From a virus: a stretch of 34,669 nt of DNA. Below are positions 5,221 through 25,000 of the stretch, in pieces. The notes under the pieces are model-generated. The model saw only the letters and a list, made by a program, of their open reading frames with translations. It was not told the DNA's origin and did not search any database. Where the stretch lies: the UHGV virus genome UHGV-0090561; one strand, written 5' to 3'. Both the position numbers and the translations under genes were made by a program. The stretch's first letter is position 1. Each line of letters opens with the position of its first letter.

Positions 5221-5795
5221 CGCTTTATTACCATTCTCAGTTGATGCTGCAGCGCATAGCCCAGCTCTTTCGGAAGACGCTCACGCCGTATCCGCTCAAT
5301 ATTCTGTTTAAACGCCGTGGTCAGCGGCACCGCCATCGGGATTTTCACCACATCAATGGGGTAACGGTTTTTCCCGGCCACACGCTGCATGACATGCCAC
5401 CGGCCATTTTTCAGTTGCTGAATAAACGCGCCGGGAATACGACGGTTTCCCACCACAAGCACGCTGCCGCCACCTTTCAGGGATGAACGCTGCCCCTTTT
5501 TACGACGCCTGCGGCGGGACAGGACAACCCGCGCGTTACCCAGCTTGATTACGGGCAAATCCCCCCGGTTAACCTTGATTCTGGCCTGCGGATTTTTGAC
5601 CGTGGCCCTTTTCAGCCTGGCCCTTTCCTTTACCAGTTTCCGGCGTACCTTTGTCTCACGGGCAACCTGTGACGCAGACTGCGATATCGCGGATGAAGCA
5701 ACGCGGTTAATGGCCATTGCGGTGGCACCAGGCACCGCCGTTTTGCTGATACGGCTGAGGTTTTCAACGGCCTGCTCAAGACCTTTTATGGCCAT
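5217..5795 (-). CDS. Z: Tail completion protein Z
   Basis: 192-aa ORF MAIKGLEQAVENLSRISKTAVPGATAMAINRVASS matches lambda gpZ. Confidence 0.95.
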   Translation of the reverse strand: MAIKGLEQAVENLSRISKTAVPGATAMAINRVASSAISQSASQVARETKVRRKLVKERARLKRATVKNPQARIKVNRGDLPVIKLGNARVVLSRRRRRKKGQRSSLKGGGSVLVVGNRRIPGAFIQQLKNGRWHVMQRVAGKNRYPIDVVKIPMAVPLTTAFKQNIERIRRERLPKELGYALQHQLRMVIKR

Positions 5796-6611: not shown

Positions 6612-7402
6612 TTACGCCAGTTGTACGGACACGAACTCATCAGGGTCAGCCAGCAGCATCAGCGGTGCTGACTGAATCATGGTGAACTCACGCGCAGGAT
6701 CGCCGGTGGTCACCCAGTTTTTCGGGTAACGGGCAGAGGCGTTAATGCCTTCGCGCTGTGCGTCCGCATCCTGAATGCAGCCATAGGTGCGCAGACCGCG
6801 TGCCTGAGTGTTCCCCAGCACCATCGTGTTGTCCGGCAGGAAGTTCTTTTTGACGCCGTTTTCCACGTACTGCCCGGAATACACGACGATGGCCACATCG
6901 CCATACATCCCCTTATAGGACACCGCTTTACCCAGGTCTTTCACCGCTGTCTCCAGCTCGGAATGAGAGCCGCGACGGGTATCCAGCTTCTCCTTGACGG
7001 CTTTGAAGGAACGGAACAGCGCCCAGCCTTTCGGATCAAACACGATGATATTCACTACACCGCTGGCGTTCAGCGCGTAGGCTTCGATATCGTCGGTCGG
7101 GTCATACGTGGACTTGTCACGCTTGCTCCACTCCGTGCCACCGGACTGTGTGATGTTGTTCGCCGCACTGCGGCCCATATCCACCTCAACCGGATCGAAG
7201 GCTTCACCGGTCATGGTGTATTTGCCCTTAAGCACGGCAGAAACTGCCTGCATCTCTTCGACCTGGGCAATGGCCAGCTCTTCGTCACGCATGTTCTGCA
7301 TGATGATGCGACGGCGACGGTAAGCCGGGTCCGCCAGATTCTGTGGATCTTCATCCGGCAGGCGACGCAGGGTCATCTGCGGATTCACCTCATGCTTGGG
7401 CT
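6612..7402 (-). pseudogene. E: Major capsid protein E, 3' fragment (codons from PKHEVNPQ to end), separated from its 5' part by the insertion
   Basis: Translation ...PKHEVNPQMTLRRLPDEDPQNLADPAYRRRR...VSVQLA matches the C-terminal ~260 aa of lambda gpE; no start codon, and a TAG lies immediately upstream at the junction. Confidence 0.93.
7393..7402. repeat. Left copy of 10-bp direct repeat TGCTTGGGCT (putative att core / target duplication)
   Basis: Identical 10-mer at 18591-18600; both copies lie inside E coding sequence (AAG CCC AAG CA on the coding strand). Confidence 0.8.
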
Positions 7403-8440
7403 ACATGAGTCAATGACGTAAGTATGTGAATGATATAAGAGGAAAAATAGAGCATAATCTCTACCAGAATGACTATGTTGCAATACATGCTGCAATACAC
7501 AGAAATGAATTTACATGCTGTTCGATTATTAAGTTTCATAGCCGAGTTGCAGATCAGCAACTCACCCACCAGCCCAGATAATTTCATTTTCACACTGGAG
7601 GACTCCTTGAAATCAAGGAATCATAATCCTGCCATGTCATCATTCCGGCCTTCTCAGATTTGAGGTGTGCGGAAAAAATAAACGCTATTAAGCAGCTATG
7701 TGGGTACTGCACTTTTTGGGTAGTGCAACTATCCAGCTTCCTCAAATTAAGGATTGTGGAAAAATCAATGAGTCAGGTTTATTCCCCCGTTCTCCCCCAA
7801 TGGGGGTTTTCGAAAGAATCAATGGGTTAGGCCATCGTGCAAATTTGCACTCTGCCAGCCAACGCAATTTTGCGTTATCAGTCCTCAGATGTGAGGGATG
7901 TAGCCAGCTTTTCCCCCAGTGGGGATTATCCAGTTACCGACGGTTTAACCGCCTGTGCCAGCACAACGAAAGAATTTGCGGGTAGCTTTAAACTACTCAC
8001 AACATCCCATCTTACAGGCCGTGCCTTTCTAACTTTTTACAATGCAATAAGTCAGGTAACGCTATGCGTTCCACCGTGTACACCGCGCCAGTAAAACCCC
8101 CGGATTCGTGGTTTTCCTGAATATCAGGAATCTACCGCCGTAACCGCTCCTGCTTCTTCCACTGGTAAGTGTTTTTCGCGCTCTCCCTTCGCTACATGGA
8201 ACGGCGACGATATGGCAACAACTCCAGAACTCTGGTGCGTATGTTGCACATATCCACGCCGTTAAGCTCGATACCGTCACGGCGCATAACCTCAAGCACC
8301 ACACGCGCGTAATTTTCAGCGGTCGTGCTGTCCGACTGCGTTGTCTCCTGTTTGCCTGCTGCCTGATAGATATCACTGGAAACGTGCCGGATAAGTTCCA
8401 GCAGCAGAAAGGCGAGTTGCTACCGCGCAATTGTTGAACA

Positions 8441-8647
8441 AAAAACGAGAAAGGAAACGACACTGTCCAAAAAACACGTTTTCAGCACCTGCTGTTTCCT
8501 TTCTTTTTAGGGGGTATTTATAATAAAAACATTAAGTTACGGCAAAGAAGAACGGAAACGCCTTAAACCGGAAAATTTTCATAAATAGCGAAAACCCGCG
8601 CGCCTTCCGCCCCGTAACGCTCCGGATCACCGGAAAGGACCCGCTCA
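8441..8647. other. cos site of the satellite (cosN/cosB-like), near-identical to the prophage cos
   Basis: About 200 bp aligns almost base-for-base with 24798-25000, including the inverted GAAAGGAAACGAC / CGTTTCCTTTC terminase R-site-like repeats and the segment GCGAAAACCCGCGCGCCTTCCGCCCCGTAACG. Confidence 0.75.
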
Positions 8648-8730
8648 AAAAAAGCGGCCACTGACGTGATTGTTTATGTTCCATGAGCGACAAAACCGCC
8701 CGGAGGCGGTTTCACATAAAACATTTTGCA

Positions 8731-9378
8731 TCAGCGACCAATCACCACAACCTGACCACCATCACCTTCATCTGCCGTGCTGATCTCCTGAGATACCACT
8801 CGCGACCCCACACGCATTTCACCGTACAGAACGGGCAGAACATTGCCCTGGGCAACCATGTTATCCAGTGACGAGAAATACGTGTTCTGCTTACCGTTAT
8901 CCGTTGTCTGTGTGCGGGGAGTTCTGGCTTTCGGTGCCAGCATCTGCGCCACACCACCGAGCACCATACTGGCACCCGCACTATACATTCCTGTAATTGC
9001 TGCCGCTCCTAGCCAACCAGCGGGGTTCCACCACGCCACCGCAATCAGCGCCGCCCCCAGCACGGTCTGAAACACACCGCCACTTTTAGCGCCAGCAAGA
9101 CGCGGTACGATGTGGATCACAGCACCATTCGCCAGCGGCTCATTAAGACGGGCTGATAATTCATTTTCGCCTGCATCCCGCCCGGCAATCCGTACCTGAT
9201 ACCAACCGTCGCTCAGTTTCTGACGAAACGACGGTAGCTGTGTGGACAGAGCTCGGATGGCTTCAGCCCCCGTTTTTACACGAAGGTCGATGCGGTGGCC
9301 GAATCGTTGCAAATCCCCGTAAAGGCAGATTCGTGCCATGCCCGATGACGCCAGAGGGAGTGTGTGCGTCGTTGCCAT
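8731..9378 (-). CDS. Tail assembly protein I-like protein (lambda gpI family)
   Basis: 215-aa ORF MATTHTLPLASSGMARICLYGDLQRFG...QGNVLPVLYGEMRVGSRVVSQEISTADEGDGGQVVVIGR resembles lambda gpI as I recall it (N and C termini conserved, middle divergent); Shine-Dalgarno upstream. Confidence 0.65.
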   Translation of the reverse strand: MATTHTLPLASSGMARICLYGDLQRFGHRIDLRVKTGAEAIRALSTQLPSFRQKLSDGWYQVRIAGRDAGENELSARLNEPLANGAVIHIVPRLAGAKSGGVFQTVLGAALIAVAWWNPAGWLGAAAITGMYSAGASMVLGGVAQMLAPKARTPRTQTTDNGKQNTYFSSLDNMVAQGNVLPVLYGEMRVGSRVVSQEISTADEGDGGQVVVIGR

Positions 9379-9418
9379 TTGTCGGTATACCTCTCTCGTT
9401 TGCTCTGTTGTTCAGAAA

Positions 9419-9802
9419 TTAGCAGATCAACTTATAGCGTCCATTCCGAGCATTGCGGCGTACACGTTCAATCTTGAGGCATAGCGCCGCATCTGGCTTT
9501 TTTGGGACTGGTACACGGCAATATTCAGAAGCGCGAGGAATATTATTTATCCAGTCAATCACTTCGCTTAAATACCAGGCCTTACGCCCTTCCGTAACCT
9601 GCACACGCTCCGGGAACTCTCCACGGGCCTCAAGGTTTAGCAGTGTACGACGACTCAGGGTTGTAAGTTCCATTACCTGATTCATATCAACAAGACGCTC
9701 GCTTAAACGCATTTTGTCAGCGATAGCTTTTAATTCCTCTACAGCTGGATTTGGGTACATAATTTCGGCAATTGGCTTAAGGTCATTGTAATGATTCTGC
9801 AT
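9419..9802 (-). CDS. AlpA-like helix-turn-helix protein with N-terminal extension
   Basis: 127-aa ORF with GGGGGA Shine-Dalgarno; C-terminal half TTLSRRTLLNLEARGEFPERVQVTEGRKAWYLSEVIDWI resembles the AlpA/excisionase-type HTH. Confidence 0.6.
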   Translation of the reverse strand: MQNHYNDLKPIAEIMYPNPAVEELKAIADKMRLSERLVDMNQVMELTTLSRRTLLNLEARGEFPERVQVTEGRKAWYLSEVIDWINNIPRASEYCRVPVPKKPDAALCLKIERVRRNARNGRYKLIC

Positions 9803-9813
9803 TGTATCCCCCT

Positions 9814-10155
9814 TTACACACGAGCCAGCGGCTGAACAGAAATACCTGAGCCAACAAACGCTGCAACCTTTACTGACAGTTCTTTTACAGACTCAGGCCA
9901 GTTCAGAGCATCAACATTTAAGACACCTGTCTTATAGACCTGAGCCTGTGTTTTTTTCGCGGTGTCGATTTGTACAGCGGATACATAAACCGCTTTACCT
10001 ACGCTCGTACCATCCCATACCACCAGTGCACCTGTTGCATCTTCCTGCATCAGTGGCGTAAATGCAGGAATTACCCCTTTATTAGCTGAAAATATCCCCA
10101 GCGTAGTAACCAGTGCTTCAGTGCCAGCCATGAGTTCAGTGTAATGAGTAGCCAT
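9814..10155 (-). CDS. Head decoration protein, lambda gpD family (divergent)
   Basis: 113 aa; aligns by eye with lambda gpD (FTPLMQEDATGALVVWDGTSVG vs [22 protein letters not shown]; AFVGSGISV vs [10 protein letters not shown]); strong Shine-Dalgarno AAGGGGGAG. Confidence 0.7.
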   Translation of the reverse strand: MATHYTELMAGTEALVTTLGIFSANKGVIPAFTPLMQEDATGALVVWDGTSVGKAVYVSAVQIDTAKKTQAQVYKTGVLNVDALNWPESVKELSVKVAAFVGSGISVQPLARV

Positions 10156-10164
10156 TGCTCCCCC

Positions 10165-11205
10165 TTAGCCAATGCGAACGGTAACAAAACGATTGATGCG
10201 AGCCGGTATTGGCTGTGGTGCTGAATGTGTCTGCACATATTCAATAGCCGGATCACCAGGCACAATATAGTTTTTCGGTGCAAGTTCGGCTTTAGTCAGC
10301 CCCATTCGGATTAGCTCCGGGTCCTGAATACCGCCATAGGCGACAATCCCCTGAAGAGCCGTATTGCCAAGCACCATCAAATCAGGATCAAGGAAATGTT
10401 TTTCAGTTCCGTCCTCGTCGGTATAACGCCCGCTGTAAACAACAATCGCAACATCGCCCATATACCCTTTAAAACTCACCGAATCACCAAGGTCTTTAAG
10501 GGCCGTTTCCAGTTCGGAATTAGAACCACGACGGGTATCCAGAGCCTCTTTTATCGCTCTGAATGAACGGTATTTCTTCCATACATTACCGCCCATAATG
10601 ATGATATTAGTGACGCCCTCACTAAATTCTGCGTAGTTCTCAATATCATCATTTGGATCAAAAGTTTCTTTATCCTTACCTGACCACTCAGCACCGCCAG
10701 ACTGAGTGATGATATTTTGTGGTTTAATATTCCAGTCCAGCTCATAACGTTCAATACCATCGCCCTCAATGATATTTTTCCCCGTTGTGATTGCCTGAAC
10801 GGCAAGCCATTCAATACGTGCACGAATAGCTTTAGCTTGATTTACAATCGCCTGTTTAACTTTAATATTACGCGCCCCAAAAGCATTGTATTGCTCAGGT
10901 GATACACCAGCAGGGCGCACAGCTAACTTATTTGGATCAATGCTGCTTTTCGGCTTCATATAGCCTGGACGAATTGTTTTTGATTCGTACCCTTCGTCAC
11001 GTGAAACTTTACTACCCACCATAGGAGAACAAAACGCTGCAATTGGGATATTTGGATCGTCGATTGTATCAAGAATAATATCGCGCGATTCAAACATTAC
11101 CGAGCGAGTAAAAAACAAACGGGTAAACAACGCATTTAGTTGTTTTTGTACATCTACAGCATTAACCACCTGTACAAGCTGGGTAGGCGAATATAAATCA
11201 ACCAT
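10165..11205 (-). CDS. Major capsid protein, lambda gpE family (divergent satellite copy)
   Basis: About 346 aa from the ATG with AAGAGG Shine-Dalgarno; central block NIITQSGGAEWSGKDKETFDPNDDIENYA...AIKEALDTRRGSNSELETALKDLG...GDVAIVVYSG is clearly homologous to lambda gpE but far more diverged than the prophage copy. Confidence 0.85.
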   Translation of the reverse strand: MVDLYSPTQLVQVVNAVDVQKQLNALFTRLFFTRSVMFESRDIILDTIDDPNIPIAAFCSPMVGSKVSRDEGYESKTIRPGYMKPKSSIDPNKLAVRPAGVSPEQYNAFGARNIKVKQAIVNQAKAIRARIEWLAVQAITTGKNIIEGDGIERYELDWNIKPQNIITQSGGAEWSGKDKETFDPNDDIENYAEFSEGVTNIIIMGGNVWKKYRSFRAIKEALDTRRGSNSELETALKDLGDSVSFKGYMGDVAIVVYSGRYTDEDGTEKHFLDPDLMVLGNTALQGIVAYGGIQDPELIRMGLTKAELAPKNYIVPGDPAIEYVQTHSAPQPIPARINRFVTVRIG

Positions 11206-11422
11206 ACGCATCCTCTTTGCATTCATTAAAAATAATTGTGGATATATGCTATCACCGATATTTGTCATGCGAATACATGCAACCGAGTGCAATGTTGTAT
11301 AAAGTTTTGGGATGACAACTTCAGCGCGGATAATTAGTGTTAATATCTTCACTCCCTTTGGTCGGGATTTATGTAGCATGCCGGAAAATTTATTTTTTTC
11401 CGGCCTTTTTTATTGGCAATAT

Positions 11423-11872
11423 TTAAAACGGAATATCATCTCCCCATTGCTCATTATCTCCCACTGGTGGATGGCTTCCTTGCTGATCTGCCTGTTGTTT
11501 TGCTCTGTTCAGTGCGTCAGTAGCCTGCCCCTGTTGGCCTTTTTTGCCGCCCGGTCGCACCGTTCGCGCACTGATTACGCTGTCTGCGATAACCTGCCAG
11601 CCCTGCCGCGTTTCACCGTTCTGTCCAGTCCACTGACTCACCTGCATGTTACCCGCCACGCTCAGGAGTTCGCCTTTGTGATGCTTTGCCAGCGCGTCGG
11701 CTTGTCTGCCAAACGCCAGAACAGATAACCACATCGTCGCCTGACCGTCATCCGACTGGCTGCAGGGCAGTGATACCGCCATACGCGCCAGCGTCATGGG
11801 GGTGCCCTTGCTGGTCTGTTTTGTCTGCGGGGCGTCCACCAGCCGCCCGTAAGCTGCTATTTGCGCCGTCAT
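11423..11872 (-). CDS. ssb: Single-stranded DNA-binding protein
   Basis: 149-aa ORF with OB-fold-like N-terminus, Gly/Gln-rich linker and the characteristic acidic tail ending DDIPF. Confidence 0.85.
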   Translation of the reverse strand: MTAQIAAYGRLVDAPQTKQTSKGTPMTLARMAVSLPCSQSDDGQATMWLSVLAFGRQADALAKHHKGELLSVAGNMQVSQWTGQNGETRQGWQVIADSVISARTVRPGGKKGQQGQATDALNRAKQQADQQGSHPPVGDNEQWGDDIPF

Positions 11873-12126
11873 GCTGCCTGCTCTCCGGACTTAATATTGA
11901 TGGTTGTCACTTCCTCCGCTTCGGCAATCTCCCGTTCGGTCAGCGTGGCAAAGTTTGCAGCCGCCGTTGTCATGAATGCGCTTATCAGTTCGGGATGTGC
12001 TTTCGCGTATCCTTCCCCGGCGTTGCGGTCTATTGCCTTAATCGCCACCCTTAGCCAGTGTTCAGCCATATCAAGGGCGCGGTAATGTGGCTTTATATGT
12101 TTGTTCAGTTTTCCTGATGTGTGCAT
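11869..12126 (-). CDS. Hypothetical protein (satellite, between ori and ssb)
   Basis: 85-aa ORF whose stop overlaps the ssb start (operon-like); no recognisable family. Confidence 0.45.
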   Translation of the reverse strand: MHTSGKLNKHIKPHYRALDMAEHWLRVAIKAIDRNAGEGYAKAHPELISAFMTTAAANFATLTEREIAEAEEVTTINIKSGEQAA

Positions 12127-12169
12127 TTTTATTTTTACCCCCTCGTTTAAAAAGTTTTTTGTGCACCAC

Positions 12170-12404
12170 CACCTTGTCTACCTTGTCTACCTGATTAGTT
12201 ATCAGGCCAGTAATGGCGCGGGTTTCAGGGAGGTAGACAGCCCCAAATAGCTGTCTACCTCATCTCTACCCGTATCCTTACCTGTCTACAAAAATGGGTA
12301 GATAAGGTAGATAACAGGTAGACAGTGAAAAATAGTTATCTACCTGCATTAATACATTGAAATAAAAGTATTTTCTTTCAGTCAGGTAGACAAGGTAGAT
12401 AACC
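12170..12404. repeat. Iteron array (putative satellite replication origin)
   Basis: About 10 copies of GGTAGA(C/T)A / its reverse complement TGTCTACC in both orientations, immediately downstream of the primase-helicase gene. Confidence 0.8.
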
Positions 12405-12415
12405 ATTGCCATTTT

Positions 12416-14167
12416 TTATAAAAACGCATCGCAATCATCAGTAGTCGTTGCGTTGGTCTGCGTGACTCCCTTAACTTTTCGCGTAATATATTCATATCCG
12501 TAAACTTTCGCCGCTGACCTCATAGCCTTTCCGAACTCATTCACGCTCAAACATTTCCCCTTTCCTGTGTATGCCATGAAGGCCATATAGACACGGTAAA
12601 GGCTGTTTCTGGTCGTGTACTTCACGGAGTCACCACCACCGCCCATCATTAGCCCACGAGCTTCCTCCAGAAACTCAAGCGCCGCGCAAAGCTCAACAAC
12701 TGGATCCGTTTGCTGCTTTATTGCCAGAGCTTCATCACCGTCACGCTGTTCCAGTAGTAAAGCCCTTGCCTTTTCAGGGTCAGCAAAGTTAGCCAGCAAG
12801 CGGCGGATAATTACGGGGATTTCTGCCGCTATCTTTTCCGGTAATTCCTTGTCTTTTTCGTCCTCCCTTACAATGTTGTCGAACCGGAAAATCACCCGAC
12901 GGCGTGACACACCTCCGGCCCGTTCGGTAAAGATCATCGGGTCGTTATTGGTTGCCAGTACCACCGCCCTTATTATCGTCGTGAATCGCTTCTCATATTT
13001 CGGATTGATTTCAACGGGATCGCCTCCCGTGATTTTCTTGATGCCCGTGCCTTCCCCCGTATATTTCGGCTGATCGGCAAGGACGATAAGACGACTCCCG
13101 ACAACCTGCGCGCGCCCTCCTGCATCATCGAGTGATGTCATCTCTGCGCTTACGGTGTTCTGTTTGCCTGCAAGCAGGGTGGCAATATGGGTAAATGTAC
13201 TCTTACCGCTTCCCCCGTCTCCGGTGGCCTCAATGAACATCTGCCAGTCGTAGCGGTTCGCCATAATCATGTATAACGCGGCACATATACGCATCATCTT
13301 GCGCGGGTCTTTTCCTGCAGCATGTTCAAGCCATTTATGGAAATTTGGCGCATTATCGCGGATGTTTTCCCCTGCTACTGGTGGCGTGTACTCAATACCA
13401 TTGTGCGTGGTGCTCCAGTGCTCCGGCGAGTGCGGAGAAAATTCCCCCGTTTTCAGATTAAGCACACCATTAGTGAACGGTAGCAAATCACCGGACGGCT
13501 CCCCCATGGGGGCTGCAATAACTTTTAACGCTTCCACGGCGTTATTGATTACACGTTTGCTGAACGTGGCCCTGTGCTCTGAATAGATCGCCACCATTTC
13601 GCGGCTCAGCTCCATTGTGCTGACCGGACACCATACCCCGCCGCGCCATACGTGGACGATTTCACTTTCTGCATGAACACACACACCATCAAAGCGATCG
13701 GCAAGTAGTTGTGCACGTTCACTGTCTGCCATCTGTGAAAGTTGCGCCTTTTGCTTCGTCGGAAGATTAAGCACCAGACTTTCCCCACGCTCGCATTCCT
13801 CTTTGAGTCGCGGCAACTGGTCGGATAAATCCACTGGGCTGGTGTCAGTAATCCCCGCGTATTCGTGTACGGTCTTCACTCCAGCCACAGCCAGTAACGT
13901 AACAATCTGCGTCATGCTGTGCTCTGTGATATGTCCTGCGCGGTAAACACGCACACACTGACGATCTTCATCAATGATCCGGTAATCGGTGATATTTTTC
14001 AGTTGCTCATCAGCCAGCACGACAGGCGGCACATCGTCGGCGGCAATATGTTTACCCGCCCATTCCTGCCACTCTTTCGCATGGCTCCACGCATCACTAC
14101 CTGCAAAGATGATTACCTCTGTCAGTCTGTCGCGTGGCTGTTTTTTTAAGTTCGGTGCCAGTTTCAT
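12416..14167 (-). CDS. Primase-helicase (P4-family primase C-terminal / SF3 helicase-like replication initiator)
   Basis: 583-aa ORF with Walker A GDGGSGKST and downstream NTPase-like motifs typical of P4 alpha-type / PICI Pri-Rep proteins; followed by iterons. Confidence 0.8.
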   Translation of the reverse strand: MKLAPNLKKQPRDRLTEVIIFAGSDAWSHAKEWQEWAGKHIAADDVPPVVLADEQLKNITDYRIIDEDRQCVRVYRAGHITEHSMTQIVTLLAVAGVKTVHEYAGITDTSPVDLSDQLPRLKEECERGESLVLNLPTKQKAQLSQMADSERAQLLADRFDGVCVHAESEIVHVWRGGVWCPVSTMELSREMVAIYSEHRATFSKRVINNAVEALKVIAAPMGEPSGDLLPFTNGVLNLKTGEFSPHSPEHWSTTHNGIEYTPPVAGENIRDNAPNFHKWLEHAAGKDPRKMMRICAALYMIMANRYDWQMFIEATGDGGSGKSTFTHIATLLAGKQNTVSAEMTSLDDAGGRAQVVGSRLIVLADQPKYTGEGTGIKKITGGDPVEINPKYEKRFTTIIRAVVLATNNDPMIFTERAGGVSRRRVIFRFDNIVREDEKDKELPEKIAAEIPVIIRRLLANFADPEKARALLLEQRDGDEALAIKQQTDPVVELCAALEFLEEARGLMMGGGGDSVKYTTRNSLYRVYMAFMAYTGKGKCLSVNEFGKAMRSAAKVYGYEYITRKVKGVTQTNATTTDDCDAFL

Positions 14168-14463
14168 TTTTTGCCCCTGAATGCGTTAATCATGCTTTTC
14201 ATTTTCTGGATGTTTCCCCGCGCTTTTTCCCTGCTGGTGGGCTTACTGCGGGGTGCGGCATATACCAGGGAAAAATCACGCCGGAACTGATAAACAGGCA
14301 TCACACAGTCATAGCTATACCCCTCACGGCGGTAAGTGATGCGCCGTTCTGCCACGCCTTTAATCGTTACCGTGCCGCCGTATTTATCGCGGTAAATATC
14401 GCCGTTCATAAATTCAGGCCGAGCGGGGCCGCTGGCAATAAAGCCAGAATTTTTCATTTCCAT
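14164..14463 (-). CDS. Hypothetical protein (upstream of primase, ATGA overlap)
   Basis: 99-aa ORF translationally coupled to the primase start; no recognised family. Confidence 0.5.
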   Translation of the reverse strand: MEMKNSGFIASGPARPEFMNGDIYRDKYGGTVTIKGVAERRITYRREGYSYDCVMPVYQFRRDFSLVYAAPRSKPTSREKARGNIQKMKSMINAFRGKK

Positions 14464-14480
14464 ATTATTTATTCTTCGAC

Positions 14481-14702
14481 TTAACTCGACTTATTTGATA
14501 GCAGGGCACTATTTATTGCGTCATTGAGTTTTTCTGCTGCTTCATCAATAAGTGACAACAGGCCATAAGCAATATTTGCATCTTCATTGTCATTTATGCA
14601 ATCAAGCCACATATTTAATATTGCTTTTGCTGAATTATTTAAAGTTAATGAACTCTCTGCACATGCTAACAATTTAAAAAAGACTTCCCGTTCTGTATTC
14701 AT
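14481..14702 (-). CDS. Hypothetical small protein
   Basis: 73-aa ORF in a tightly packed co-directional array; AT-rich. Confidence 0.4.
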   Translation of the reverse strand: MNTEREVFFKLLACAESSLTLNNSAKAILNMWLDCINDNEDANIAYGLLSLIDEAAEKLNDAINSALLSNKSS

Positions 14703-14894
14703 TTAATCCCCCACCAGCTTACTTTCTTCCTCAATCAGGAAACTAGCGACACTTCCCGAAAGGCGCGCCAGTAGGCTCGCCAGCGCGGATATATCAGCAT
14801 CTGTAATTTTGTTCGGGTATACCTCAAGAAGGCGGCAAATAATTTCTGTTTGGTGCGCACGTTCAGCGGCTTCGTGTAATGTGATTTCCTGCAT
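14703..14894 (-). CDS. Hypothetical small protein
   Basis: 63-aa ORF abutting its neighbours without gaps. Confidence 0.4.
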   Translation of the reverse strand: MQEITLHEAAERAHQTEIICRLLEVYPNKITDADISALASLLARLSGSVASFLIEEESKLVGD

Positions 14895-15079
14895 TAATGC
14901 ACCTCTTTTAATTCATACACTGCTGAAATAATGACTTGTGATAAGCCATATTCTGATGATTCGCTTCTCACCGCAGCAATAGCCGTCTGAACATTAACAG
15001 CCTTCACGTTCTGAGTGATACCAATTGTGTGGCCTCGTGGGTTAACAGCTCGGGCAAATACACGGAAGGTTTTAAGCAC
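14894..15079 (-). CDS. Hypothetical small protein
   Basis: 61-aa ORF overlapping its neighbours by a few nt. Confidence 0.4.
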   Translation of the reverse strand: MLKTFRVFARAVNPRGHTIGITQNVKAVNVQTAIAAVRSESSEYGLSQVIISAVYELKEVH

Positions 15080-15275
15080 GGCACACCTCCTGACGAATAC
15101 GGGCAGCGAATACCATCACGCAGCCAGTTGGGGATTGCTGGCGGGCTTCCTGTTCGCTGATGGCCTCGATGGTAATCATGCGCGGTTGTGCCGTACTCAA
15201 GGCGATAAAACGCCAGATGTATTTATTCAGGTTGTGCGAGTTCCGCCCTTGCGGGTGTGTGGTATGATTTCTCAT
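15072..15275 (-). CDS. Hypothetical small protein (first gene of the leftward satellite operon)
   Basis: About 67 aa from the internal ATG preceded by a GAGG Shine-Dalgarno; the upstream part of the track ORF is not supported. Confidence 0.4.
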   Translation of the reverse strand: MRNHTTHPQGRNSHNLNKYIWRFIALSTAQPRMITIEAISEQEARQQSPTGCVMVFAARIRQEVCRA

Positions 15276-15474
15276 AGCTACCTCGATACTGTTGCTATCG
15301 TTGGTGGTTAGAAGCCCGTTGGTGTTCCTAGCACCTTCGGGCTTTGCTTTTTTAAGTGCCCCCGTGTTAAGGTGGTCACCTAACAATGAAAAGGCTAATT
15401 CAATAGGTGGTCACTTGTCAACGATCAAACGCGATAAAAGTCCTAAGGGTGATGGGCAATCTCCACAATTCAGA

Positions 15475-15606
15475 ATGCGAATTTCTCCAGAGCTAAAAGA
15501 GCAATTCGACAAAGAAGCGCAGAGCGACGGCATAAGCCTAGCCAACTGGCTTAAAGAATTAGGGCGCAAAGAGCTGCTACGGCGCGGTATTGAACCAAAA
15601 GGATAA
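15475..15606 (+). CDS. Ribbon-helix-helix (Arc/CopG-like) DNA-binding protein, putative
   Basis: 43-aa product MRISPELKEQFDKEAQSDGISLANWLKELGRKELLRRGIEPKG fits the RHH pattern; weak Shine-Dalgarno, so the start is uncertain. Confidence 0.45.
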   Translation: MRISPELKEQFDKEAQSDGISLANWLKELGRKELLRRGIEPKG

Positions 15607-15633
15607 GAATAATTGAAGTCAAGGAGCTAACAC

Positions 15634-15990
15634 ATGAAATACGAATTCTTCGCAACAAGTAGCAGTAGTTTGGATGTATACATAGTCACTGTATCAAACG
15701 ATTCTGGCTCGCTAATCATGACTTGTAATTGTCCAGCAGGAAGTAAAGGTATTCTATGTAGACACCGTAAAGCTTTAATTACCGGAAAAATCCGCGGTAT
15801 ATTCACTCCCCCAAGAAGGAATAATCCTGAAAAATTACAAGAAGCTATAAATTTAATAGCCACATATGGCATAGATAAAACATTAAAGTTGTACACTGAT
15901 GAGTTAGAACGAGCAGAACAGACTTGGATAAGTGTTCGCGATAATTTGAGAGCAATGATAAACGCTCTTGTTGAACCACCTAAATATTGA
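15634..15990 (+). CDS. SWIM zinc-finger protein, small
   Basis: 118-aa ORF with AAGGAG Shine-Dalgarno; motif CNCPAGSKGILCRH matches the SWIM CxCxnCxH signature; followed by an intrinsic terminator. Confidence 0.7.
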   Translation: MKYEFFATSSSSLDVYIVTVSNDSGSLIMTCNCPAGSKGILCRHRKALITGKIRGIFTPPRRNNPEKLQEAINLIATYGIDKTLKLYTDELERAEQTWISVRDNLRAMINALVEPPKY

Positions 15991-16056
15991 ACTGTTCACA
16001 TTGCCTATCAGGCGATAACCTCGTATTCTGATTAAGGCTAACTATATACTCACATT

Positions 16057-16080
16057 GGCGACCAATTCTGGTCGCCTTTA
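16057..16080 (+). terminator. Rho-independent terminator after the SWIM gene
   Basis: GGCGACCA-attc-TGGTCGCC hairpin followed by TTTA; position hand-counted. Confidence 0.6.
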
Positions 16081-16121
16081 TCCACCATTTTTATAATATC
16101 ATAGATTAAAAGTGTTAATCC

Positions 16122-16952
16122 TTACCCCCTGAATGGAATTGATGAGGATTTAATTTCCACAGAACTAAATCCTCTTGAATCCAAGAACATTTTTATACCA
16201 GCCTCAATAAAATCATAATCGTTTGTCGGGCCAATTGTAATGCTTTTAATTGGTAACTTTCTATTATCTTTATTATCAATGATGATATAAGGGATGATCC
16301 CATTATTATTTATTCTGAAGTGCACATCTGGCATTTGCATCCACGGAGTAAATACCAATCTAAATTCATTCTCTTCGATAAAACTAGGATGTTTAAAAAA
16401 TGGGATGTATTTAGATATAAATTGATACGTAGAGACCATTGTTACAAAATGATCATTCATTTCTTTAATATTAATACCATTACAAGAAAAAAACTCCCCC
16501 AACTCCTTACTCATCTTAGTAATATCGTTATTATTTGAATATATAACATCATGTGCAACACAATTTAAATAAATATTTTGAGAAAAGCTCACAAGTTCAT
16601 CCGCATCAAACTCAATGCAAACACCCTGTTTATTTCCGTAACCTCTCCACTGACTTAACTTATCGTTTTCCTTACAAAAAGAGATGCTATAAACATGTTT
16701 ATCAATCCCTTTTTCTTTTTGTAACCTCCCTTTCTCATACATGTCAAGAGACTTGAGCAAAATAGTTTTCTTATCTTTTGGAATGATATTATCATCAACT
16801 ATTTTAATTGTATTTCGAAAGCATTCACATCCATGGTTAGACTCCTCTTTATCATTTAAGAAATATATGTTTGTAGCCCATAAAGAATTAGAGTCTAATA
16901 TACCTTTCAAACCAAAAAGATCTGTATAATGAAATATAGCCACAATGCCCAC
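16122..16952 (-). CDS. DUF2971-like protein (satellite cargo, function unknown)
   Basis: 276-aa ORF, markedly AT-rich versus its neighbours; N-terminal FHYTD...YFLNDKEE resembles the DUF2971 motif as I recall it (not verified by HMM); GTG start 7 nt after the alpA stop. Confidence 0.55.
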   Translation of the reverse strand: MGIVAIFHYTDLFGLKGILDSNSLWATNIYFLNDKEESNHGCECFRNTIKIVDDNIIPKDKKTILLKSLDMYEKGRLQKEKGIDKHVYSISFCKENDKLSQWRGYGNKQGVCIEFDADELVSFSQNIYLNCVAHDVIYSNNNDITKMSKELGEFFSCNGINIKEMNDHFVTMVSTYQFISKYIPFFKHPSFIEENEFRLVFTPWMQMPDVHFRINNNGIIPYIIIDNKDNRKLPIKSITIGPTNDYDFIEAGIKMFLDSRGFSSVEIKSSSIPFRG

Positions 16953-16959
16953 CTAATAG

Positions 16960-17190
16960 TTAAGTTGTTTCCCACTCACCTCGAATCCATGCCTGCACTT
17001 CTGAAAGACGATATGCAACAGCAGTGGAACCAATCTTGATCCGCTTAGGAAATTTTCCTTCCTTCTCCAGCTTCCAGCGTGTGCTGTTCGCAAGAGTGGT
17101 TAGCTCCCGACATTCTTTCTCACGGATCATTCGGTCAATGTTAGGAATGTACTCCAGACCCTTTTTATCAACAATTGCCATTTTTTTCAT
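16960..17190 (-). CDS. alpA: AlpA-family transcriptional regulator / excisionase-like protein
   Basis: 76-aa ORF immediately downstream of int; ...RELTTLANSTRWKLEKEGKFPKRIKIGSTAVAYRLSEVQAWI is the AlpA HTH pattern. Confidence 0.8.
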   Translation of the reverse strand: MKKMAIVDKKGLEYIPNIDRMIREKECRELTTLANSTRWKLEKEGKFPKRIKIGSTAVAYRLSEVQAWIRGEWETT

Positions 17191-17191
17191 G

Positions 17192-18427
17192 CTAACCAGC
17201 CTTTTGTTTGAGGATTGTCACTTTTGAATCAGCAGCTGCGATGCTATTGAGATATGTAGTCCAGAGTTCCAGAGCATCCAGTTTTTTAGCCATAAACTTA
17301 CTCCGGTTGTAAACACCTGCCACGCCAGGTAGCGCATGGCCTAACAGTTGTTCTACTACATAAAATTCAACACCGAGATCACTTAGATGAGTAGATAGCG
17401 TTCTTCTAAGGTCGTGTAGTGACCATTGTTTTTCATGGCCCAAACGTTTACCGATTTTCCCCCCAATCTTGCTTACGCTTTCTCTAATTCGCAGACTTCC
17501 CAGCACATAACCAGTATGTTTTGTCTCTTCGTGAACATCCGTTACCCACTGTCGTAGAATTTCAGGTACTGGTCTGACGATTTCAACACCAGTTTTTGAG
17601 TGATCTTTTGGCACAGTCCAAACCCAACTTTCGAGATCCCATTCGCTCCATTCTGATAATCGGGCTTCACTCATTCGACATCCAAATACTGTACAAAGCA
17701 CAAACATTTTTCGCGTGTATTCAGACATTAGTTTTAAATCAGGCTCGACAAAAATTGCCTTCCAGAGCTGGCCCAGTTCGGCTTCATCCAGAACCCGATC
17801 CCGCTTACCTGCAATCTGCCCCACATCACTCATGCGCAAATCCTTTAAAGCATCACACGTCGCGTACTGGCGTACCCGACAAAAACGAAGAGCTAATTTA
17901 GTGTCAGAAAAAACATACGCCGCCATAACTGGTGCATTACGTTTAATTCGGTCAAAACAGTCCAGCCATTCATATAGGTGAGTGTCATTTACGGGCAAAT
18001 GACCGATATAGGGAAAGATATGCTTTCGAAATCTGCCAAGCGTTACAGCATGAGTTTTACGACGCACCTTACAGTAATTTTCATACCAGTAATTTAGTGC
18101 ATCCTCCACTGTGACCGGCTTTAAGCGTTCTTCAGCCTGAATCTTAATCTGGATACGCGGATCACGTTTGTCAGCCAACCAAGCACGGCACTCGTCGCGC
18201 TTTTCCCTTGCCTGTTTGAGTGACATATCAGGATATTTACCCAACGTTAGCCAGACCGGAGCAGCCCGGCCACCTGCTAACCTGTAGAAGAAAACAAAGC
18301 TCACAGCCCCCTTGGTACTCACACGAATAGAAAGCCCCTTTCCATCAGCAATGGTGATCTGCTTTTCTCTGGGTTTCCCCAGATATCCTTTAAGTGCTTT
18401 GTCGCTCAGTTTGTTCTCGCCAGCCAT
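17192..18427 (-). CDS. int: Tyrosine recombinase (phage integrase family)
   Basis: About 411 aa from the internal ATG (MAGENKLSDK...); C-terminal catalytic region with HDLRRT...LLGH...Y-type motifs; adjacent to the right junction and direct repeat. Confidence 0.88.
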   Translation of the reverse strand: MAGENKLSDKALKGYLGKPREKQITIADGKGLSIRVSTKGAVSFVFFYRLAGGRAAPVWLTLGKYPDMSLKQAREKRDECRAWLADKRDPRIQIKIQAEERLKPVTVEDALNYWYENYCKVRRKTHAVTLGRFRKHIFPYIGHLPVNDTHLYEWLDCFDRIKRNAPVMAAYVFSDTKLALRFCRVRQYATCDALKDLRMSDVGQIAGKRDRVLDEAELGQLWKAIFVEPDLKLMSEYTRKMFVLCTVFGCRMSEARLSEWSEWDLESWVWTVPKDHSKTGVEIVRPVPEILRQWVTDVHEETKHTGYVLGSLRIRESVSKIGGKIGKRLGHEKQWSLHDLRRTLSTHLSDLGVEFYVVEQLLGHALPGVAGVYNRSKFMAKKLDALELWTTYLNSIAAADSKVTILKQKAG

Positions 18428-18589
18428 TTTTAGCCCCAAAAAGCAATACAAGCTGCAATACAGAGATGATTGCAACACACAGATAACGAGGAAAATCCAG
18501 TGAAAGCGCCAGATAAACTTATTCTTTATTATCAAAAGATTAAGTGTAAAAACCAGCAACTACACGAAAGCCTCAGAAAGCCATGCTAA

Positions 18590-18835
18590 GTGCTTGGGCT
18601 TGACATATCCCGGTGTAAATTCAGAGGTGGAGCCGCCACGGGAGCGGATAACCTCACCGGAAACAATCGGCGAAACGTACAGCGCCATGTTTACCAGTCC
18701 CGGAATTTGTGAGAGATAGACTTTCTCCGTGGTGAAGGGATAGCTCTCACGGAAAAAGAGACGCAGAAACAGCGGATCAAACTTAAATTTCTTCTCATTT
18801 GCCGCCAGCAGCTGGGCGGTTGTGTACATCGACAT
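18590..18835 (-). pseudogene. E: Major capsid protein E, 5' fragment (first ~81 codons), reading into the insertion
   Basis: MSMYTTAQLLAANEKKFKFDPLFLRLFFRESYPFTTEKVYLSQIPGLVNMALYVSPIVSGEVIRSRGGSTSEFTPGYVKPKH matches the lambda gpE N-terminus, then diverges (LAWLSEAFV, stop) at the junction. Confidence 0.93.
18591..18600. repeat. Right copy of 10-bp direct repeat TGCTTGGGCT
   Basis: Identical to 7393-7402; lies at the codons KPKH of E. Confidence 0.8.
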
Positions 18836-24779: not shown

Positions 24780-24797
24780 TGTTCATTCCACGGACAA

Positions 24798-25000
24798 AAA
24801 CAGAGAAAGGAAACGACAGAGGCCAAAAAGCCCGTTTTCAGCACCTGTCGTTTCCTTTCTTTTCAGAGGGTGTTTTAAATAAAAACATTAAGTTACGGCG
24901 AAGAAGAACGGAAACGCCTTAAACCGGAAAATTTTCATAAATAGCGAAAACCCGCGCGCCTTCCGCCCCGTAACGTTCTGGATCGCCGGAAAGGACCCGA
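24798..25000. other. Prophage cos region (cosB R-site-like repeats and cosN-like segment)
   Basis: Reverse complement resembles the lambda left-end region (AAACGACAGGTG.../CGTTTCCTTTCT... R sites, IHF-like AT-rich stretch), but the cosN-equivalent differs from lambda GGGCGGCGACCT; duplicated at 8441-8647. Confidence 0.75.

Follow-up and report, generated by a model that had tools for sequence, protein, structure and literature searches.

A small winged-helix gene, here called HTH127, is part of the late module of enterobacterial phage-inducible chromosomal islands (PICIs), which encodes their capsid, and is probably not concerned with integration or packaging specificity. We studied it in a 34,669-nucleotide stretch of viral DNA, UHGV virus genome UHGV-0090561 (hereafter the window), in which such an island, the satellite, lies within a lambdoid prophage, its helper, and HTH127 follows the satellite's genes for a major capsid protein (E') and a head-decoration protein (D'). 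We favour, with a probability of roughly 0.4, a reading in which HTH127 serves its own module, as late activator or autoregulator of the E'-D'-HTH127 unit, and works through phased repeats upstream of E'. The first-pass annotation of the window had proposed, from position, either a late regulator or a factor that redirects packaging; the former is compatible with what follows and is the one that we infer, from the gene's place as third cistron of the unit and from a conserved promoter region of activator type with phased repeats.

Full-length relatives of HTH127 were found at 17 loci, in E. coli, Enterobacter, Buttiauxella, Kosakonia, Kluyvera, Superficieibacter, Cedecea and Serratia; a scan of genome contigs contributed four extra loci, and a search seeded with the Serratia variant one more protein. 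The order E'-D'-HTH127 is kept at all 17, with near-identical spacing. Integration sites differ among the loci (the prophage E gene, tRNA-Pro, cspD/clpS and fis), as do the replication modules (primases that are 41–46% identical, or an AAA_25 helicase), and the segment after HTH127, including the type of cos and the presence of a small terminase gene (terS'), varies independently of HTH127. For instance, the protein is 97.6% identical between the window, which has a helper-type cos and no terS', and a tRNA-Pro island with a terS' of its own. The AlpA proteins encoded next to the integrase show at least five unrelated recognition helices among the loci, while that of HTH127 (TTLSRRTL) is unchanged except for R52Q in Serratia. 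Family members also occur in Citrobacter and Salmonella, and in an HMMER search of 1.84 billion representatives the full-length architecture was confined to three clusters at 50% identity, all other matches covering the core only. A tblastn search of 50,697 phage genomes gave no match, which argues that the family is specific to satellites and islands; its match to PHROG 2790 probably stems from copies embedded in prophages. The late module is present in 366–408 of 5426 complete E. coli genomes (about 7%), and rppA-type genes, discussed below, in 110 genomes.

HTH127 is a real gene under purifying selection. Compared with other E. coli copies the ratio of nonsynonymous to synonymous change (dN/dS) is 0.03–0.10, dN in the helix-turn-helix (HTH) core is 0.02–0.04 between genera where synonymous sites are saturated, and the length of 127 residues is kept in about 100 homologue clusters across genera. 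The gene begins 11 nt after D', and its Shine-Dalgarno sequence, AAGGGGG, lies 5–6 nt before the start and overlaps the D' stop codon, in agreement with the earlier description of it as a good one. Its sequence places the product in the AlpA/Xis (MerR-like winged-helix) class and predicts that it binds specific DNA sequences. The protein matches the Pfam family Phage_AlpA (PF05930) with an E-value of 1.3e-8 and 35 bits, against a gathering cut-off of 21 (residues 36–85 on profile positions 2–51 of 51), and PHROG 2790, labelled excisionase/regulator, with an E-value of 3.6e-48. Among solved structures the only match is the AlpA-family excisionase of GIsul2 (PDB ID: 8c3t; E=1.6e-10), which is also the closest solved relative (40–44% identity in the core), followed by RdfS, Pukovnik Xis and TorI, and HTH127 has the winged HTH (wHTH) fold of this excisionase/MerR-like type. 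It shares 37% identity over 67 residues with the AlpA protein encoded next to int in the same element, so the claim of a second, distinct AlpA-type gene was correct: the two are paralogues and not copies.

Two N-terminal helices (residues 8–15 and 19–33) precede the wHTH (40–86) and a basic amphipathic helix (105–119) follows it. The N-terminal extension, initially put at about 45 residues, is shorter, with about 35 residues relative to the Pfam domain and about 21 relative to the element's own AlpA; among relatives it measures 22–35 residues, and about 22 in the Serratia branch. The C-terminal extension is the more distinctive feature. It is conserved, about 40 residues long, and consists of a WINNIPR motif, in which W-I-N-N-I-P is invariant, and then the amphipathic helix. 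HTH127 differs by its N-terminal helical hairpin and this C-terminal extension from other AlpA/Xis proteins (PICI AlpA, the GIsul2 excisionase, P4 Vis), and additionally by being encoded in the capsid module, not beside int, with no co-variation with the integrase. The AlphaFold2 model was built from an alignment of 63 sequences that includes ordinary AlpA proteins; the 23 close homologues alone gave an unusable model (predicted local distance difference test score, pLDDT, of 52.6). No NCBIfam model is specific to HTH127; the protein family as such is already annotated as "AlpA family / HTH transcriptional regulator". Terminal extensions and a fixed place in the capsid module mark out a narrow, strongly conserved subfamily that appears undescribed: the literature searched does not mention it, and one paper has typical E. 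coli PICIs carrying a single AlpA. The P. aeruginosa antiterminator "AlpA" was considered as an analogy and rejected, since that protein has a Q-like fold of eight helices and no relation to Pfam Phage_AlpA (PMC9371919).

About 170 bp upstream of E' are conserved across the loci, following the hairpin or terminator of the replication genes. In the window this region has an extended -10 element and three direct repeats, whose centres lie near -60, -50 and -40 relative to a transcription start predicted near 11239 (Table 1). Across loci the repeats number three or four, each a hexamer of the TTGCAC, TTGCAT or TTATAC type, at an exact spacing of 10 bp, and the sequence TGnTAnnAT is kept 23–25 nt from the last repeat in all of them. 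The assignment of this promoter, PE', is based on conservation only; a scan with the sigma-70 consensus did not flag it, as expected of a promoter that has no -35 element. The array is unique in the window (two overlapping matches, 0.16 expected), at 9 of 13 loci a TTGCAY array was found upstream of E' and nowhere else, the remaining ones having variant repeats, and no second array of this kind was seen elsewhere in nine other loci of about 20 kb that were scanned. Phased variants (TTATAC, TTGTAC, TTAGAC) occur in Buttiauxella, Cedecea and Serratia, and Serratia, with the only changed recognition helix, has the most divergent repeats (TTAGAC/TTAGAC/TTGGGT/TTGTGC). Within E. coli, the upstream region is found in 366 genomes and full-length HTH127 also in 366, and the island EcCICFT073 (sequence taken from the CFT073 genome) has E' and D', and neither HTH127 nor the repeat array. 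What lies upstream of the capsid unit of EcCICFT073 (5380..5435 of our locus L002) is a TATAAT within a palindrome and, directly after it, a terminator-like hairpin with a 14-bp stem, unlike the phased-repeat promoter.

Small winged helices of the Xis/BldC type bind phased direct repeats head-to-tail. In the regulatory reading that we prefer, several HTH127 monomers would likewise line up head-to-tail on the TTGCAY-type repeats, three or four in number with a spacing of 10 bp, at about -40 to -70 upstream of E', and the bound protein would activate the E' promoter with its extended -10 and no -35. The C-terminal amphipathic basic helix, which has no counterpart in BldC or lambda Xis, could provide contacts between protomers or with RNA polymerase; DNA binding by HTH127 is itself predicted. 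With HTH127 as third cistron of the very operon that it would control (E'-D'-HTH127, then cos, and terS' where present), a positive feedback loop would result. The first molecules may come from read-through of the helper's late transcript in the embedded state, and of an AlpA-driven early operon in free-standing islands. Since the AlpA helices vary among loci while the repeats and the HTH127 helix stay constant, HTH127 is the more parsimonious binder of the repeats. Its binding to them, activation as opposed to repression, and the source of the first molecules are all inferred here. The logic resembles that of delta in the sid-delta-psu operon of P4, in which the regulator of a satellite activates the capsid-modifying late operon that contains its own gene, though the analogy extends to logic only: delta/Ogr proteins are zinc-finger proteins, a family unrelated to HTH127, and transactivation by HTH127 is a proposal.

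Several points weigh against this reading. The literature searched holds no report on binding, expression or genetics of HTH127. The linkage of repeats and gene is partly trivial, the two being 1.5 kb apart in one module, and Buttiauxella combines TTATAC repeats with an unaltered recognition helix, so that covariation of repeats and helix is weak. A helper or host factor could be the binder instead, because TTGC-N6-TTGC is also the site of lambda CII. Additionally, a regulator inside its own operon needs a trigger from outside, which is conjectured here, and the partly palindromic stretch around the -10 could act as an operator through which the unit is repressed. Lambda CII itself was considered as the binder and is unlikely: at pRE the distance of the CII site to the -10 element is about 14 bp shorter than that of the repeats in the window, and the Serratia repeats lack TTGC.

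In a broader form of the regulatory reading, PICIs would exchange a portable, self-contained late cassette independently of their integration and replication modules; it would comprise the phased-repeat promoter, the capsid and decoration genes, the activator and cos, with terS' in some. HTH127 would be its master switch, a delta-like late transactivator on an excisionase fold that helper late transcription triggers and that might feed back on the helper; we regard this as doubtful. If HTH127 does control the capsid genes, this would explain how these PICIs time their shell proteins relative to the helper and why the cassette moves between islands as a unit, and one protein with one site of about 30 bp would offer a handle by which engineered PICIs could have their capsid production turned on or off. 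Should HTH127 act on terminase instead, packaging piracy would have a second solution, unrelated to the first. In both cases the advance is incremental, within a well-studied kind of system.

The invariance of the recognition helix across genera would also fit a conserved target outside the satellite. HTH127, made late, might repress or activate helper genes, for example the head genes, or host targets, and so bias assembly towards satellite capsids. Satellites often carry regulators of this sort, such as CapR of PLE, PtiA of SaPIs and P4 delta acting on P2 (cited in part in PMC10111431). However, the window spans helper genes from tail to replication and has no second TTGCAY array over its 34.7 kb, and selective repression of E would be hard with lambda late genes on one transcript. 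We consider such an external role rather unlikely.

The kinship with excisionases raises the question of whether HTH127 is a recombination directionality factor that directs excision of the satellite or of the helper prophage. All of the nearest solved relatives (GIsul2 excisionase, RdfS, Pukovnik Xis and TorI) are excisionases, the PHROG label points the same way, and a second AlpA of the island EcCIMP1 (alpA_1) can replace the helper Xis (PMC11773190). That gene, however, lies elsewhere in its island and on the other strand, and its product is similar to the helper Xis, which makes it a different case. HTH127 is inherited with E' and D' and not with int. The integrases that it accompanies use at least four different sites, every island has an AlpA or HTH_17 protein of its own next to the integrase, and the att junctions have no TTGCAY array nearby. 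With no co-inheritance of HTH127 with a cognate integrase and att site, we find a role in excision very unlikely.

Position beside cos had suggested a role in packaging. The gene does have E' and D' upstream and cos downstream, as described, though in the window a gene similar to lambda gpI intervenes between it and cos; in most relatives cosQ/cosN begins about 35–60 bp after the HTH127 stop codon. A packaging factor would bind the helper small terminase Nu1, TerS' or cos DNA and favour packaging of the satellite or block that of the helper, in the manner of Rpp, or of Ppi in SaPIs. The Rpp proteins (RppA/B/C) of E. coli cos-PICIs, for example EcCICFT073, share with HTH127 the slot that separates the capsid and decoration genes from cos, as well as the broad MerR-like wHTH fold class, and an rppA-type gene is the only characterised occupant of that slot. 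In EcCICFT073 it contains c1501 and rppA (144 residues, c1503) (PMC6739421); c1501 has no family match and no similarity to HTH127.

Beyond fold class and slot the likeness does not hold. HTH127 and RppA gave no BLASTP alignment at E<=100 and an hhalign probability of 0.1%, no Rpp chain is among the PDB sequence matches of HTH127 at E<=10, and there is no detectable similarity to helper Nu1. Domain order differs as well: Rpp has an N-terminal DNA-binding domain that mimics that of TerS, followed by a three-helix dimerisation domain (PMC6739421), whereas the DNA-binding domain of HTH127 is central. Furthermore Rpp works with a satellite-specific cosB, while elements with HTH127 use a helper-type cosB or their own TerS'.

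The cos sites tell the same way. Satellite and helper cos are 92% identical over 206 bp, from the cosQ side through cosB, with R3 and R1 identical and two mismatches in R2, and both have the variant cosN GGGCGGAAGGCG in place of the lambda sequence GGGCGGCGACCT. The latter was not found in the window, where cos was located by homology to the prophage site; it is present in related PICIs of Enterobacter and Serratia. The window thus has no cosB unlike the helper's that would need an Rpp-TerS heterocomplex, and with a satellite cos essentially equal to that of the helper no retargeting would be called for. At seven of the first 13 loci, cos is followed by a Nu1-like terS' of the element's own, and there cosB has a different repeat type (GCTGGTGGTGGTG...), while loci without terS' have lambda-like R sites. 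The cosB beside terS' was read in three loci (L004, L005 and L007) as a repeat of type GCTGGTGGTGGTGTTG.... Examples of terS' lie at 9589..10131 in L008 and 10599..11108 in L005, and the L008 protein matches Pfam Nu1 only in its C-terminal part; with the different cosB repeats this suggests that the DNA-binding domain of TerS' was exchanged along with matching sites.

HTH127 stays constant while cosB type and terS' presence vary, even between the Nu1-dependent element of the window and the TerS'-bearing tRNA-Pro island. To inhibit helper Nu1 would defeat the very elements that depend on it, that of the window included, and specificity is already accounted for by a helper-type cosB or by terS' with a matching one. 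The insertion of a gene between HTH127 and cos, in the window and in Kluyvera, means that adjacency to cos is not required. Packaging redirection, the main one of the two roles first suggested, therefore seems to us improbable.

The satellite that carries HTH127 is about 11.2 kb long (about 7389..18590) and is inserted in the major capsid gene E of the prophage. Its junctions, near 7389 and 18590, both carry the core AGCCCAAGCA and interrupt helper E precisely at ...KPKH. All of its genes share the minus strand with the helper late genes, and their order there is int, alpA, DUF2971, small genes, primase, ssb, E', D', HTH127, gpI-like, cos, about 1 kb of further sequence and attR (Table 1). Insertion of helper-embedded PICIs at this site (E:Phage_cap_E) has already been published (PMC10111431). 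That paper describes elements inside gene E of lambdoid prophages and co-oriented with it, with int-alpA, a dynamic zone, primase/ssb and a late zone, and with a cos copy about 90% identical to that of the helper, all as in the window; the passages of it covered here do not single out a second AlpA-type gene in the late zone.

Table 1. Positions in the window of the satellite features discussed and of the helper cos site.
Feature	Position	Strand	Remarks
int	17192..18427	minus	
alpA (int-adjacent)	16960..17190	minus	
DUF2971 protein	16122..16952	minus	adjoins alpA in the variable zone
primase	12416..14167	minus	
hairpin	11380..11404		after ssb, between replication genes and capsid unit; relatives have clear intrinsic terminators here
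direct repeats	11277..11302	minus	three in 10-bp phase: TTATAC 11302-11297, TTGCAC 11292-11287, TTGCAT 11282-11277; candidate HTH127 array
extended -10	11238..11254	minus	TGaTAGCAT (11254-11246) in a partly palindromic segment; putative E'-D'-HTH127 promoter, no recognisable -35
E', satellite major capsid protein	10165..11205	minus	346 aa; Pfam Phage_cap_E 4.5e-41; Shine-Dalgarno sequence and ATG seen
D', satellite head-decoration protein	9814..10155	minus	Pfam HDPD 4e-15
HTH127	9419..9802	minus	open reading frame with ATG start, 127 aa; AlpA/Xis-family winged-helix protein
gpI-like tail assembly gene	8731..9378	minus	Pfam Lambda_tail_I 5.7e-24; own Shine-Dalgarno sequence
satellite cos	8441..8643	minus	cosQ side, cosN 8601-8612, cosB R3-I1-R2-R1; by homology to prophage cos
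helper prophage cos	24796..24999		cosN 24957..24968

E' is 43–45% identical to helper E, and D' 38% identical to helper D. We set the start of E' from its homologues, the mechanical open reading frame reaching 11379, and a relative is annotated in RefSeq with 1041 nt. The gpI-like gene is 81% identical to a helper-type I, is missing from most relatives and is probably co-transcribed. An I-like gene, 35% identical, occupies the same slot between HTH127 and cos in a Kluyvera PICI (L011, 10678..11253), which suggests that satellites have captured gpI repeatedly.

Between cos and attR, about 1 kb (7395..8440) has no convincing open reading frame and only mosaic matches in E. coli genomes, and no Rfam match was found there or elsewhere in the satellite; this segment may be decayed cargo. 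In relatives, the variable positions beside alpA or after cos hold genes for TIR, FRG and AF_1680 proteins and for an "abortive infection family protein", which suggests that these positions are hotspots for defence cargo.
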